A DNA stretch of 24,165 bases from Clostridia bacterium (GCA_017618475.1 JAFZUF010000025.1:1-24165), one strand, 5' to 3'. Shown: positions 19,307 to 23,992, counted from the first letter of the stretch. Notes: generated by a model not told the origin, from the letters alone. Made by a program: numbers and translations.

Positions 19307-20071
19307 ATGTTATTTACGTCCGAAATACCAGTCGCGGTTATGGATAAAATTAAAACACCATTTCCATTTTTGATTTGGCATTATTTTTCCAATCGCAAAT
19401 ACAAAGACCCATTTCCAACAAGTCAGCGATATGGGATAGTTGACAACGGTTGTTTCGAAACATCAACCGGGGTGGTTAAATCAAACAAAATTGTTATGCC
19501 AAAACACGCACGTTATTTTTGCGTGGTTCCGGATAAGTTTGGTGAACCAACATTTCAACAATTGGCCAAAATGCAGACTTATGTAAAAAACCGGACAATG
19601 TTTGTACCACATGCTCGTTATGTTGAAGAATATGGTATGTTGTTGTCCTATTACTTGAGTTATGTGAACAAAAAATTACCGAAGACGGCAAAAGTATTGT
19701 TGGGTGTTAGTTATATGGAACCTTTTTACAGCAAAAACTGGATTCGTGCAGCATTTCAACGTCGCTTTGTTGTGGGTAAAATTAACACAGCCCTGGAGCA
19801 ATTGGATAAGAACCATCAAATCGACATCCATTTATTGGGATGTAAGTCCATTTTTGAGTTATGGCTTTGTCGCAAGTTTTCTCGCGTTATAAGCGCTGAT
19901 TCGAGTTTACCGGTATTACATGCCATGAAAGGTAAAAAGACGCGCTTATGGAGCAAAAAAATAAAGCAAATGGCTGGTTTTATTGATTTGGAACCAAACG
20001 AAAAGCAAACAGCTTTAATCCAGCGCAATATTGATTACGTTAACAAAATACTTGGAGGTACAAAATGTTAA
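19307..20071 (+). CDS. TGT-fold (tRNA-guanine transglycosylase-like) protein 1, divergent DpdA-type
   Basis: VDNGCFE, VVPDK, FVPH, IHLLG and SADSSLP align with TGT barrel motifs including both catalytic Asp; likely start 19307 after AAGGAG; overlaps queD. Confidence 0.7.
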   Translation: MLFTSEIPVAVMDKIKTPFPFLIWHYFSNRKYKDPFPTSQRYGIVDNGCFETSTGVVKSNKIVMPKHARYFCVVPDKFGEPTFQQLAKMQTYVKNRTMFVPHARYVEEYGMLLSYYLSYVNKKLPKTAKVLLGVSYMEPFYSKNWIRAAFQRRFVVGKINTALEQLDKNHQIDIHLLGCKSIFELWLCRKFSRVISADSSLPVLHAMKGKKTRLWSKKIKQMAGFIDLEPNEKQTALIQRNIDYVNKILGGTKC

Positions 20072-20571
20072 TTCGCAAATTATATCGTTTTGAGGCTTGT
20101 CATTGTGTTCGGGATTGCAATTCGGAGCGCTGCAAAAAATCGTTTCACGGCCACTCATATTTGGTGGAAGTGTTTTTCCGTTCACCGGTCGCAACAAATT
20201 ATGGTATGGTTATCGATTTTGGCGATTTGAAGAAAATTGGTGTAAAGGACTTGTTTGATAACTTTGACCATAGCTGGCATTTTTGGGACAAAGAACGTGG
20301 CGATGTAAAGGAATTTATCAAATCCCACAACCAACGTTGGATTGAATTACCATTTAACCCAACCGCGGAAAATTATGCGGCATTCTTTTGTGCAGAAATT
20401 AACACATTATTGCAGCAAGCGAAGTTTGATGGTGTATTGGATAATCCGGAAGCGGTATGCAGCTCGGTGAGAGTGCATGAAACAGCAACCGGTTGGGCGG
20501 AAGCAACAATGGAAGATGCAGCCAATTTCGATACAAACGTAATTTATTCACCAGAAACCAAGGAGTCATAA
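20065..20571 (+). CDS. queD: 6-carboxy-tetrahydropterin synthase QueD
   Basis: FEACH, HGHSY, FDHS, NPTAEN, VHETAT. Confidence 0.92.
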   Translation: MLIRKLYRFEACHCVRDCNSERCKKSFHGHSYLVEVFFRSPVATNYGMVIDFGDLKKIGVKDLFDNFDHSWHFWDKERGDVKEFIKSHNQRWIELPFNPTAENYAAFFCAEINTLLQQAKFDGVLDNPEAVCSSVRVHETATGWAEATMEDAANFDTNVIYSPETKES

Positions 20572-20573
20572 AA

Positions 20574-21029
20574 ATGAAAAATTGTCCAGTTAAATGTTTG
20601 TTGGAACATCCGGAAGCAAAGATACCACAACGTGCTTATGGTACATCCGCGGCTTATGATGTGTTTTCTTGCGAAAACATTATCATCCCACCACATTCAT
20701 CAAAGTTTGTAAACATTGGTTTGCGTTTTATGATTCCTGATGGTTTCTTTGTTCGCTTCTGGCCGCGCTCCGGAATGGGATTAAAACATGACGTATTTGT
20801 TTTCCCTGGTTTGTTGGATGCTGGTTATGCGGGCGATTGTGCCGTTAAATTGTACAATTGTGGCGATGAAGAATATGAAATATGTTCAGGAAAAGCAATA
20901 GCACAAATTGAAATTGGTAAAATGGTTGAAGACGCAATCATTATGGAAACAACAAATCATGCGGAATACACCGCTTATGAAAACAGTTCAGCGCGTGGTC
21001 GCAATGGACAAGGTTCAACAGGACACTAA
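20574..21029 (+). CDS. dut: Trimeric dUTPase
   Basis: All five motifs: AAYDV, PRSG, LDAGYAG, IAQI, RGRNGQGSTG; start 20574 after AAGGAG. Confidence 0.95.
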   Translation: MKNCPVKCLLEHPEAKIPQRAYGTSAAYDVFSCENIIIPPHSSKFVNIGLRFMIPDGFFVRFWPRSGMGLKHDVFVFPGLLDAGYAGDCAVKLYNCGDEEYEICSGKAIAQIEIGKMVEDAIIMETTNHAEYTAYENSSARGRNGQGSTGH

Positions 21030-21041
21030 AAGGAGCACACC

Positions 21042-21554
21042 ATGTCATTATACAAGGAAGTCCAACAATTAAACGATGAAGTTATGGCTTTAATTGAAGC
21101 CTTGAATAATAACCCAACACCGGAAGAAACTCAGGAGTTGTCCGAAAAACTGGTGGCCGTTGCTGAAGCCCGCGATTATATGCAAGACCAAAGTTGCGAG
21201 GAAATATGCAAAGCCAGACAAAACTGTATGGCCGACAACGAAGCCATTGACGCCGAACTTAAACGTTTGCAGGCTCGCAAGGCCAATAACAAAAAAGCCA
21301 TCGAGTTTTATGAAAACGAATTATTGCGGGCTGTGGAACTTCGTGGTGGTAAATTCATGGCCGGTACATTTTCTATCGGTACAAGAAAATCAACCGTGGT
21401 GGTTGTCGATGAAACTATATTTAATGATGACCGGTTCAAATCGGAGGAAGTAACCATTAAAATCGACAAAATGGCCATAAAAGCTGCGTTAAAAGATGGT
21501 GAAGTTATTGCCGGTGCAGAATTGGTCGATAAACAAAACATCGCAATTAAATAA
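21042..21554 (+). CDS. Siphovirus Gp157-family protein
   Basis: Coiled coil plus C-terminal KIDKMAIKAALKDGEVIAGAELVDKQNIAIK. Confidence 0.85.
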   Translation: MSLYKEVQQLNDEVMALIEALNNNPTPEETQELSEKLVAVAEARDYMQDQSCEEICKARQNCMADNEAIDAELKRLQARKANNKKAIEFYENELLRAVELRGGKFMAGTFSIGTRKSTVVVVDETIFNDDRFKSEEVTIKIDKMAIKAALKDGEVIAGAELVDKQNIAIK

Positions 21555-22110: not shown

Positions 22111-22144
22111 TATGGTTTGCAGAAACGAATAAAAGGAGAAACAC

Positions 22145-22762
22145 ATGGCTCGTAAACCAAAAGAAAAAATCATAACCAATAAAAACTTGATTCGCGACAA
22201 TCAACCGCAAATCGAGGATTGCATAAGAAAGTTGATATCACTTTTGGGAGACGACCCAAATAGACCAGGATTGAAGGAAACACCAAAACGCGTTGCAAAA
22301 ATGTATGCGGAAGTGTTGGATGGTCAATTGTACACCAACAAGGAAATTGGTAAAATGTTTGCCAAGAACTTTGATGTGGATAAAAACAATTTGGTGGTTG
22401 TTAAGGACATTACCTTTTATTCGTTGTGCGAACATCACATTGTTCCATTTTTTGGAAAAGCCTTTATTGGTTACATACCAAATGGTAAAGTTATTGGGTT
22501 ATCCAAATTGGCTCGTATTACCCAACTTTGTGCAAAACGTTTACAATTGCAGGAAAAATTGGGTGACGATATAGCACAAGCTGTGATGGAAGCAACCGGT
22601 GCAAAAGATGTGGCCGTTGTGTTAAAGGATACCAAACATTTATGTGTATCGATGCGTGGTATAAAAGATGATACCTTTGACACAACAACGGCCGCCCTAT
22701 ATGGACGCTTTGTAACCAAACCAGCATTACGTAATGAATTTTACAACATCATAAAAGCCTAA
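22145..22762 (+). CDS. folE: GTP cyclohydrolase I FolE
   Basis: GLKETPKRVAKMY, SLCEHH, GLSKLAR, QLQE, HLCVSMRG. Confidence 0.96.
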   Translation: MARKPKEKIITNKNLIRDNQPQIEDCIRKLISLLGDDPNRPGLKETPKRVAKMYAEVLDGQLYTNKEIGKMFAKNFDVDKNNLVVVKDITFYSLCEHHIVPFFGKAFIGYIPNGKVIGLSKLARITQLCAKRLQLQEKLGDDIAQAVMEATGAKDVAVVLKDTKHLCVSMRGIKDDTFDTTTAALYGRFVTKPALRNEFYNIIKA

Positions 22763-22764
22763 AA

Positions 22765-23178
22765 ATGAAAAAAGAATTGCGACTTGTTAAACTGGACGAC
22801 TTAAAACCGTACGATGGAAATCCACGGCGCAACAATAAGTCGGCTCAAATTGTGGCAAAATCAATCCAAGCTTATGGTTATATCAATCCAATTGTTGTAA
22901 CCGATGAATTGGTTGTTTTGGCTGGCCACACCCGCTTGAAAGCACTTAGAATATTGGGTTGGACTGAAGCCGAAGTATTGGTGGTGTCCGGTTTAACAAA
23001 GGAGCAAATTGACGGTTTTGTTATTGCGGACAATCGTGTTGGTGAATTTTCTCAATGGAATTATTCGGCCGTCGATAAGCTCGTTACAAGTACCACGAAA
23101 GACCCATTGTTAAAAGAACTTGGGATGACTTCGTTTAAGGACAATAAAAGTGAATTGGAGAAACTTATAAATGCATAA
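22765..23178 (+). CDS. ParB/Srx N-terminal domain protein (stand-alone)
   Basis: LKPYDGNPR, YGYINPIVV, LAGHTRLKA, IADNR; 137 aa, no HTH or methyltransferase fusion. Confidence 0.9.
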   Translation: MKKELRLVKLDDLKPYDGNPRRNNKSAQIVAKSIQAYGYINPIVVTDELVVLAGHTRLKALRILGWTEAEVLVVSGLTKEQIDGFVIADNRVGEFSQWNYSAVDKLVTSTTKDPLLKELGMTSFKDNKSELEKLINA

Positions 23179-23992
23179 ACTGGTTTATGGTTTGGGTGGT
23201 GGCCTTGTGTATTCATGTGGAGCAAAAGGCAAATGGAAAGAAGTATTACCCAAATTATTAAATACAATTGAAAACGCCGTTTTAATTTCCACCGTGGATA
23301 TGCCATTAAATGCAACCAAGGTTATTTATGAAACGGTTGGCCAAGACCGGTTATATCTTGATTCTGGTGGTTTTACCTTATACAAAAAACAAACAAAATT
23401 GGAACCGGAACCGTTCGCCAAAGAATGCGAACGTATGAAACGCAAATTCCTTAACATGTGTCGTGCTGCAAAATACGCTGAAATATTCGAATTGGATAAC
23501 GAATATTTTCATGTGGAAGAAGACATGTTATCGCCTAAAAATTATTGCCGGGAAGACGTTAAAAAAATAACCGGCTTTTATCCAACACCAGTTTTTAAGA
23601 TGCATCAAGGTTTTGAATACTGGAAAAAATTATGTGAATGTCCATTGTACCCAAAGTTAGCAATTGGTGGTCAAGCACAAACACGCGACTGGAAATGTCA
23701 TCGGGATGAACTTCGTAAAATGATGAACTATGCCAGACAATGTGGTAAGAAGGTTCATTTATTGGGATGTCAAAACGTTGAAACCTTTAAGATGGTAAAA
23801 CCGGATACCGTGGACTATTCAATATTTCAGTACGCCATCAATTTAGCACACGCAAAAGCGGAACATCCGGAACTGACAACTTACGAGGAATTAAAAATCC
23901 ATGCGGTGTTATATGCGTTTGCTCGGGCAAAATCGAGAAGTTTCTTGTATGATACCAACATTGATGATGAACAAATAGACGAAGAATGTTAG
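23171..23992 (+). CDS. TGT-fold protein 2, DpdA-like 7-deazaguanine transglycosylase
   Basis: LYLDSGGFT, FELD, PVF..H, LAIGG, VHLLG, TVDYS; overlaps the ParB gene by 8 nt. Confidence 0.8.
   Translation: MHKLVYGLGGGLVYSCGAKGKWKEVLPKLLNTIENAVLISTVDMPLNATKVIYETVGQDRLYLDSGGFTLYKKQTKLEPEPFAKECERMKRKFLNMCRAAKYAEIFELDNEYFHVEEDMLSPKNYCREDVKKITGFYPTPVFKMHQGFEYWKKLCECPLYPKLAIGGQAQTRDWKCHRDELRKMMNYARQCGKKVHLLGCQNVETFKMVKPDTVDYSIFQYAINLAHAKAEHPELTTYEELKIHAVLYAFARAKSRSFLYDTNIDDEQIDEEC

Follow-up and report, generated by a model that had tools for sequence, protein, structure and literature searches.

What does a second transglycosylase-like enzyme do in a phage cassette for 7-deazaguanine synthesis? The question is raised by a 24,165-nt stretch of DNA assigned to a Clostridia bacterium (GCA_017618475.1 JAFZUF010000025.1:1-24165), referred to below as the window. 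Its plus strand encodes two proteins that resemble tRNA-guanine transglycosylase (TGT): P1, whose gene is coupled to queD, and P2, whose gene follows that of a small ParB-domain protein. An earlier note on this DNA, made from the sequence, had placed both in one operon of the 7-deazaguanine pathway and had suggested that they divide the work between them. Judged by sequence, P1 falls within the published DpdA3 family as a divergent member, and P2 comes from a large family without a name, of which DpdA1 is the nearest, though distant, named relative. The ParB and P2 genes form a coherent, horizontally mobile two-gene unit. We give an even chance to the following reading, taken as a whole: the window is a piece of a phage genome that would make a 7-deazaguanine of the preQ0 (7-cyano-7-deazaguanine) type and encode two non-orthologous DNA-guanine-transglycosylase-like enzymes, and the ParB-P2 unit would serve as a DNA-exchange add-on, resembling bacterial DpdA and DpdB, to the DpdA3 system.

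The matter is of interest beyond this locus. DpdA3 is the family assigned to the phages with guanine fully replaced, and replacement in these phages reaches 100%; phages with DpdA1 modify only 0.1-30% of their guanines (PMC10516641). DpdA3 is the only DpdA subfamily tied to complete replacement. A second, strongly conserved transglycosylase-like family with a ParB partner, found almost only beside DpdA3, offers a concrete handle on how 100% is reached.

Two transglycosylase-like families in one cassette

All motifs quoted in the earlier note were found where it had put them: DNGCFE (residue 46), PD (75), HLLG (175) and DSSLP (198) in P1, and DSGGFT (64), ELD (107), AIGG (164), HLLG (196) and DYS (215) in P2. 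Both proteins model as confident (beta/alpha)8 barrels; the predicted local distance difference test (pLDDT) score of the AlphaFold2 (AF2) model was 94.0 for P1 and 91.8 for P2, each modelled from its family alignment. As the note had held, only the core motifs are common to the two. Global alignment gave about 20% identity, the BLASTP match was limited to the HLLGC stretch, and only 19 columns were aligned in the profile-profile comparison of the two families. On these comparisons, P1 and P2 are different families and not recent paralogues.

Three aspartates are invariant over TGT and DpdA; the bacterial DpdA cannot do without Asp95 and Asp256 (PMC10164549). All three are retained in P2 as well as in P1 (Asp46, Asp76 and Asp198), in agreement with the claim that both proteins keep the catalytic positions. 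The reported lack of a CxCxxC zinc site in either protein was likewise confirmed: the alignment of P1 and P2 (254-273 aa) to TGT spans residues ~38-373 of the latter and leaves out the zinc subdomain. Neither has the CxCxxC...H zinc site or the C-terminal tRNA-binding parts of a canonical tRNA-guanine transglycosylase. Neither matched the Pfam models of TGT (PF01702) and DpdA (PF23859) in a Pfam scan at E 0.1, a search of the whole source bin with PF23859 at E 1 returned nothing, and no relevant match came from searching PDB sequences with the profiles of the two families.

The assignment of P1 rests on its family alignment (A2). Compared by hhalign with the DpdA3 of Flavobacterium phage immuto, which is named as such in Cui et al. 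2023 (PMC10516641), this alignment gave a probability of 100% (E 3.3e-46, 249 columns), and with the DpdA3 homologue of Campylobacter phage WX1 a probability of 99.9%. P1 alone had no PHROG match at E 0.01; 17 of the 23 members of its alignment matched phrog_19058 (best 2.4e-42), the PHROG that holds the immuto and WX1 proteins. The top 50 VIA structure matches of P1 were all TGT. Its close relatives are few, with only 7 in a collection of 5.8 billion proteins and 19 matching cluster representatives in a 50%-identity library. A tblastn search of 50,697 phage records with P1 gave chance-level matches only, and a nucleotide search of the same records with the region of the gene array gave no match.

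Within the DpdA3 family the subclade of P1 is an outlier, with DNG for DNS, P-H-A for Q-G and A-D-S-S for I-D-T-S (DSS for DTS at its core) and with only 19-24% identity to other DpdA3 proteins. His102 of P1 takes the place of the glutamine in the family's QG motif. In the bacterial DpdA the base is read by a histidine (His181) at the matching position (PMC10164549), so the substitution is compatible with activity; it may point to altered recognition of the base.

P2 is most similar, among named families, to DpdA1 of Enterobacteria phage 9g and CAjan (phrog_887; Hutinet et al. 2019, PMC6884629), which is likewise encoded in a preQ0 gene cluster. The DSGGF, F-E-L-D, H-Q-G, A-I-G-G and H-L-L-G...D-Y-S motifs of P2 align with the corresponding motifs of E. 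coli Tgt and 9g DpdA1, and D64, D109, Q146, G166, G167, H196, G199 and D215 are invariant in 25 members of the P2 family. All base-binding and catalytic positions of TGT and DpdA are kept in P2. Matches to the P2 structure in BFVD included viral models of queuine tRNA-ribosyltransferase/DpdA (from 5e-8 down). The relationship is nevertheless distant. P2 matched phrog_887 at E 1.1e-13 over its residues 60-217 only (profile positions 57-209 of 509), far below the 2e-98 of the 9g protein itself; hhalign of the P2 family with 9g DpdA1 gave E 6.3e-4 and a probability of 28% over 155 columns. A tblastn search with P2 found no DpdA1 phage, and the 9g cluster lacks a ParB partner. Thus the placement among DpdA subfamilies by profiles and structures, which the earlier note had proposed, was carried out and led to DpdA3 for P1 and to a distant relative of DpdA1 for P2.

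The P2 family has no name and is large, with 200 or more clusters at the 90% identity level. No model was matched in Pfam (E 0.1) or NCBIfam, and a search of AFDB clusters with P2 returned unnamed proteins only. Among the 50,697 phage records, the only cultured phage with P2 was Campylobacter phage CC_R7 (57.5% identity). Assignment to DpdA2 of the Vibrio phage nt-1 type was rejected (hhalign probability 0.4%, E 0.14), as was the idea of a fusion of P2 with ParB, the longer family members (303-357 aa) having no ParB or other Pfam domain. Additional copies of P2 occur in some contigs. They are arranged in tandem in three related contigs (L039-L041; 9060-9962 and 9953-10867) and lie ~13 kb apart in a 161-kb contig (L024, L026), where no ParB gene was detected upstream of the second copy.

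The ParB-P2 unit and its association with DpdA3

The ParB protein retains the NPR and G-H-x-R (here GHTR) signatures and is closest to the ParB domain that phage DNA methyltransferases carry as a fusion (phrog_498, 1.5e-28). ParB domains of this type usually occur in fusion with phage DNA-modifying enzymes or next to them, as in the ParBc-methyltransferases and the ParBc proteins encoded beside CmoX (PMC12783734). The window protein resembles them in matching the methyltransferase ParB domain and differs in having a transglycosylase-like barrel, not a methyltransferase, as its partner. The ParB-P2 pair is a further case of the unexplained ParB-domain companions of phage DNA-modifying enzymes.

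In the window, P2 is translationally coupled to the ParB gene. In IMG/VR, a ParB homologue lies directly upstream of P2 in 29 of the 32 P2 loci, which are spread over 31 contigs. Two of the three other loci are cut at P2, and the third is the second P2 copy on the contig of L026. The P2 gene of CC_R7 likewise has a ParB gene directly upstream. The two genes also diverge together. When 12 non-redundant lineages are compared in pairs, the identities of P2 correlate with those of ParB with a Spearman coefficient of 0.86, and with those of DpdA3 with a coefficient of 0.50; mean identity is 64% for P2, 59% for ParB and 38% for DpdA3. The P2 of the window is 75-81% identical to those of two contigs (L019 and L016); identity between the DpdA3 proteins concerned is 21-22%. 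Discordances as sharp as this one mark the comparison of P2 with DpdA3.

Evidence of mobility comes from the Campylobacter phages. The ParB-P2 genes of CC_R7 (L001:1499-2744) are flanked by homologues of the CP220 genes gp128 and gp129 and run on the opposite strand. In CP220 (L056) and 13 further related Campylobacter phage records the flanks match at 90-93% and ~1.4 kb is absent. An insertion of this size, lacking in the relatives, identifies ParB-P2 as a mobile two-gene module. CC_R7 with the module and CP220 without it make up a natural, isogenic-like plus/minus pair. The suggestion of two sub-modules in the window is thereby borne out: one is the ParB-P2 unit, recognized by gene overlap, adjacency, correlated divergence and insertion, and the other is P1, a DpdA3 coupled to queD through a 7-nt overlap.

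The module is found nearly always with DpdA3. In IMG/VR, 27 of the 31 P2 contigs encode DpdA3 (26 within 10 kb of P2 and one elsewhere on the contig), the remaining four being fragments with an estimated completeness of 8-58%. CC_R7 carries both genes, separated by ~75 kb; in WX1 and immuto only DpdA3 is present. The usual layout of the P2 cassettes is the co-linear order QueD-QueE-FolE-ParB-P2-kinase-QueC-DpdA3, and no DpdA1 homologue was found in the P2 loci. The association is asymmetric, since DpdA3 occurs mostly alone. IMG/VR holds at least 546 DpdA3 loci, and among the best 80, a sample drawn with a narrower alignment (A6) that leans towards immuto-like phages, only two have P2 and ParB, both from one virus. 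ParB-P2, being kept almost only in DpdA3 phages, depends on DpdA3.

With respect to the DpdA3 phages known so far, P1 belongs to the same family and has neighbours of the same kind (FolE, QueD, QueE, QueC, a thymidylate kinase (TMK)-like kinase and a phosphoribosyltransferase, PRTase). Those phages, however, have a single transglycosylase-like gene, to which the window, the 27 IMG/VR contigs and CC_R7 add ParB-P2. The statement that phages normally have one DpdA holds for cultured phages, P2 being present in only one (CC_R7) of the 50,697 phage records. Pairing of two such enzymes is common in metagenomic phages. The DpdA3 family, the preQ0 pathway and DpdA-DpdB are already published; a description of the P2 family, of its ParB partner or of the near-exclusive association with DpdA3 was not found in the searchable open-access literature. 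The pairing, which the earlier note had allowed might be both common and already described, is accordingly recurrent and asymmetric, and undescribed in the literature searched. In the CC_R7 paper the ParB and P2 genes are labelled 'DNA binding protein' and 'hypothetical protein'.

Mobility and association bear on two further explanations. ParB-P2 could be a horizontally acquired second DNA transglycosylase with the same product as DpdA3, kept as insurance, for instance against host inhibitors of DpdA3 or for other infection times or hosts. The mobile nature of the module and its insertion in CC_R7, the 75-81% identity of P2 between phages whose DpdA3 proteins share about 21%, and the tandem or second P2 copies of some phages would all suit such a backup. 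A link to DpdA3 that is near-obligate, and never to DpdA1 in the loci examined, speaks instead of dependence, as does the strong conservation of both ParB and P2; we regard simple redundancy as doubtful.

The other explanation takes one of the two barrels to be catalytically inactive. TGT enzymes work as dimers, and the eukaryotic TGT pairs an active subunit with an inactive one, QTRT2. A regulatory or structural subunit of this kind could be sought in P2, QTRT2 being among its structural matches, or in P1, whose divergence within DpdA3 is strong (19-24% identity to the DpdA3 proteins found with P2 elsewhere). The three aspartates and the base-pocket residues are, however, invariant columns in both families, which disfavours an inactive subunit. 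The distance of ~75 kb between the two genes in CC_R7 and the free exchange of the DpdA3 partner relative to P2 tell against it too, and its likelihood is very small.

Possible division of labour

In the favoured reading, in which ParB-P2 adds DNA exchange to a DpdA3 system, the ParB-domain protein would form a complex with P2 and bind DNA, probably in a nucleotide-dependent manner, and would give P2 access to the duplex. P2 would then swap guanine for the 7-deazaguanine base, with Asp215 as the putative nucleophile and Asp64 as the putative acid/base. Bulk replacement would be performed by DpdA3, and ParB-P2 would supplement it at sites or in DNA states that are poorly served by DpdA3.

The comparison underlying this reading is with the bacterial Dpd system of Salmonella Montevideo (PMC10164549; PDB 7ui4), in which DpdB, an ATPase of the ParB superfamily, is needed for the insertion of preQ0 into DNA. 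The likeness consists in the adjacent genes for a barrel and a ParB protein, which in the window overlap by 8 nt and show correlated divergence. By this analogy, ParB-P2 would be a minimal phage counterpart of the ATP-dependent bacterial DpdA-DpdB insertase. The differences are considerable. The phage ParB comprises the N-terminal domain only, and P2 has no Pfam DpdA match; the window lacks DpdC and restriction genes, its system is phage-borne, and a second barrel is encoded alongside.

Several further points weigh against the reading. The ParB protein matched none of the PADLOC models of Dpd systems, its sole PADLOC match being a type II methyltransferase model (8.8e-17). Since only a 137-aa N-terminal domain is present and a PADLOC Dpd match is lacking, orthology of the protein to DpdB is not supported, and it is taken for an analogue. 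Comparison of structures alone did not separate TGT from other triosephosphate isomerase (TIM) barrels for P2, so its placement in the TGT superfamily relies on sequence and on the viral structure matches. DpdA3, to which the bulk of the work is ascribed, has never been shown to be active and left plasmid DNA unmodified when assayed in E. coli (PMC10516641). Finally, replacement is already complete in phages with DpdA3 only, which leaves the need for a second enzyme at the DNA level unexplained.

The main rival is a different arrangement, in which the two barrels would act before and after replication. DpdA3, together with the TMK-like kinase and, where present, the Gpt-like PRTase, would feed a pool of 7-deaza-dGTP to the polymerase; ParB-P2 would be the only true DNA transglycosylase, a minimal phage DpdA-DpdB that patches the residual guanines after replication. 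Complete replacement in DpdA3 phages, the inactivity of DpdA3 on plasmid DNA in the E. coli assay and the detection of ADG (7-amido-7-deazaguanine) nucleoside in cytoplasm after infection with CP220 (PMC10516641) are in line with such a scheme. It is also suggested by the gene neighbourhoods. Of the best 80 IMG/VR DpdA3 loci (L061-L139), 69 have a gene for a TMK-like kinase no more than 10 kb from DpdA3, and a homologue of the immuto kinase is present in most P2 loci (26 open reading frame matches). The DpdA3 cassette of immuto includes both the kinase and a PRTase gene, and a PRTase is encoded in the window as well and in 9-21 of the 80 DpdA3 loci. P1 itself is a minimal barrel of 254 aa without zinc or C-terminal nucleic-acid-binding parts.

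So strong a linkage of the kinase to DpdA3 is a hint that DpdA3 systems may include a step at the nucleotide level. It could also reflect general nucleotide metabolism, and the PRTase and kinase could supply a nucleotide route that needs no barrel enzyme. To our knowledge, no enzyme of the TGT superfamily uses free nucleotides. Post-replicative insertion is, moreover, what Cui et al. argue for (PMC10516641). We consider this arrangement unlikely; if true, it would overturn the view that 7-deazaguanine modification of DNA is all post-replicative and would add a free-nucleotide substrate to those of the TGT fold.

A target of P2 other than phage DNA was also considered, namely tRNA of the host or the phage, DNA of the host or a protein, conceivably the ParB partner. 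Cap10 of the type IV cyclic-oligonucleotide-based antiphage signalling system (CBASS) is a precedent for protein modification. The structural match of P2 to Cap10 is, however, no better than those to TGT, archaeal TGT (arcTGT) or unrelated barrels. A ParB-type partner points to DNA, and a search of the whole window for tRNA and tmRNA genes (ARAGORN) found none. Such a target is improbable and, like redundancy and an inactive subunit, ranks among the less likely explanations.

The preQ0 pathway and the layout of the window

The presence of queD, folE and queC, claimed in the earlier note with queC on the other arm, is supported by Pfam matches (Table 1). QueE completes the FolE-QueD-QueE-QueC set, and the window contains neither QueE nor any other radical S-adenosylmethionine (SAM) gene. 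Syntenic contigs that share its gene order have a homologue of QueE (E ~2e-12 to 9g QueE) past P2, ~1.9 kb downstream in one (L052:16545-17504) and ~0.5 kb in another (L054:15277-16122). The phage pathway is thus probably complete, and the contig of the window is cut short of QueE; of the set named in the note, three members stand in the window, and the fourth lies outside it, in relatives beyond the point at which the contig ends. A radical-SAM gene on another contig of the same bin (C147) was tried as the missing QueE and rejected as unrelated to the downstream region of the phage.

No QueF, Gat domain or DpdN was found in the window, which has no tailoring enzyme beyond QueC. From FolE, QueD, QueE and QueC without these enzymes, the predicted base of the window is preQ0, or ADG if QueC here stops at the amide. 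Other cassettes with P2 add a Gat-like or DpdN-like gene and are predicted to end at different derivatives. P2 is therefore not bound to one final derivative. The idea that P1 and P2 split the work by inserting different bases is weakened by this, and the gene content of the window lends it no support.

The source bin comprises 684 kb in 152 contigs and is 78% complete; the window is the whole of one contig (C100). Its gene content is of the phage type only, including terminase-like, Gam-like, dUTPase and HAD-PNKP phosphatase genes, and the contig may be a co-binned phage rather than a chromosomal part of the organism of the bin.

Table 1. Features of the window relevant to 7-deazaguanine synthesis and insertion
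Feature	Position	Strand	Evidence and remarks
P1, divergent DpdA3-family transglycosylase-like barrel, 254 aa	19307..20071	+	hhalign, AF2, motifs
P2, ParB-coupled DpdA1-related transglycosylase-like barrel, 273 aa	23171..23992	+	phrog_887 1.1e-13
Stand-alone ParB/Srx N-terminal domain protein, 137 aa	22765..23178	+	phrog_620 1.7e-33, ParB_N 1.5e-4
queD (6-carboxytetrahydropterin synthase)	20065..20571	+	PF01242 9.5e-24, TIGR03367 7.4e-18
folE (GTP cyclohydrolase I)	22145..22762	+	PF01227 6.3e-64
queC (7-cyano-7-deazaguanine synthase), divergent arm	10427..11218	-	PF06508 3.2e-41, TIGR00364 2.9e-31
TMK-like P-loop kinase, overlaps queC end	9838..10476	-	weak dTMP-kinase matches
Gpt-like PRTase	17433..17903	+	NF006613 xanthine PRTase 1.6e-11, phrog_8995 3.5e-10; first gene of plus-strand array
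dUTPase-family gene within array	20571..21029	+	PF00692 2.1e-19, phrog_135 1.8e-32

From ~17.4 kb onward, every gene is on the plus strand, and together they form a co-directional, tightly packed array, in the order Gpt-like PRTase, two unknown genes (one Cas4/PD-(D/E)XK-like), P1, queD, dUTPase, Gam-like gene, two small open reading frames, folE, ParB and P2. The description of these genes as one operon agrees with this packing. It finds no backing in transcription signals, since promoter-like and terminator-like sites in the window were not in excess over shuffled sequence and the boundaries of the array are not set by them. Within the array, the start of P1 is the ATG at 19307, with AAGGAG just upstream, and the folE stop lies 2 nt ahead of the ParB gene.

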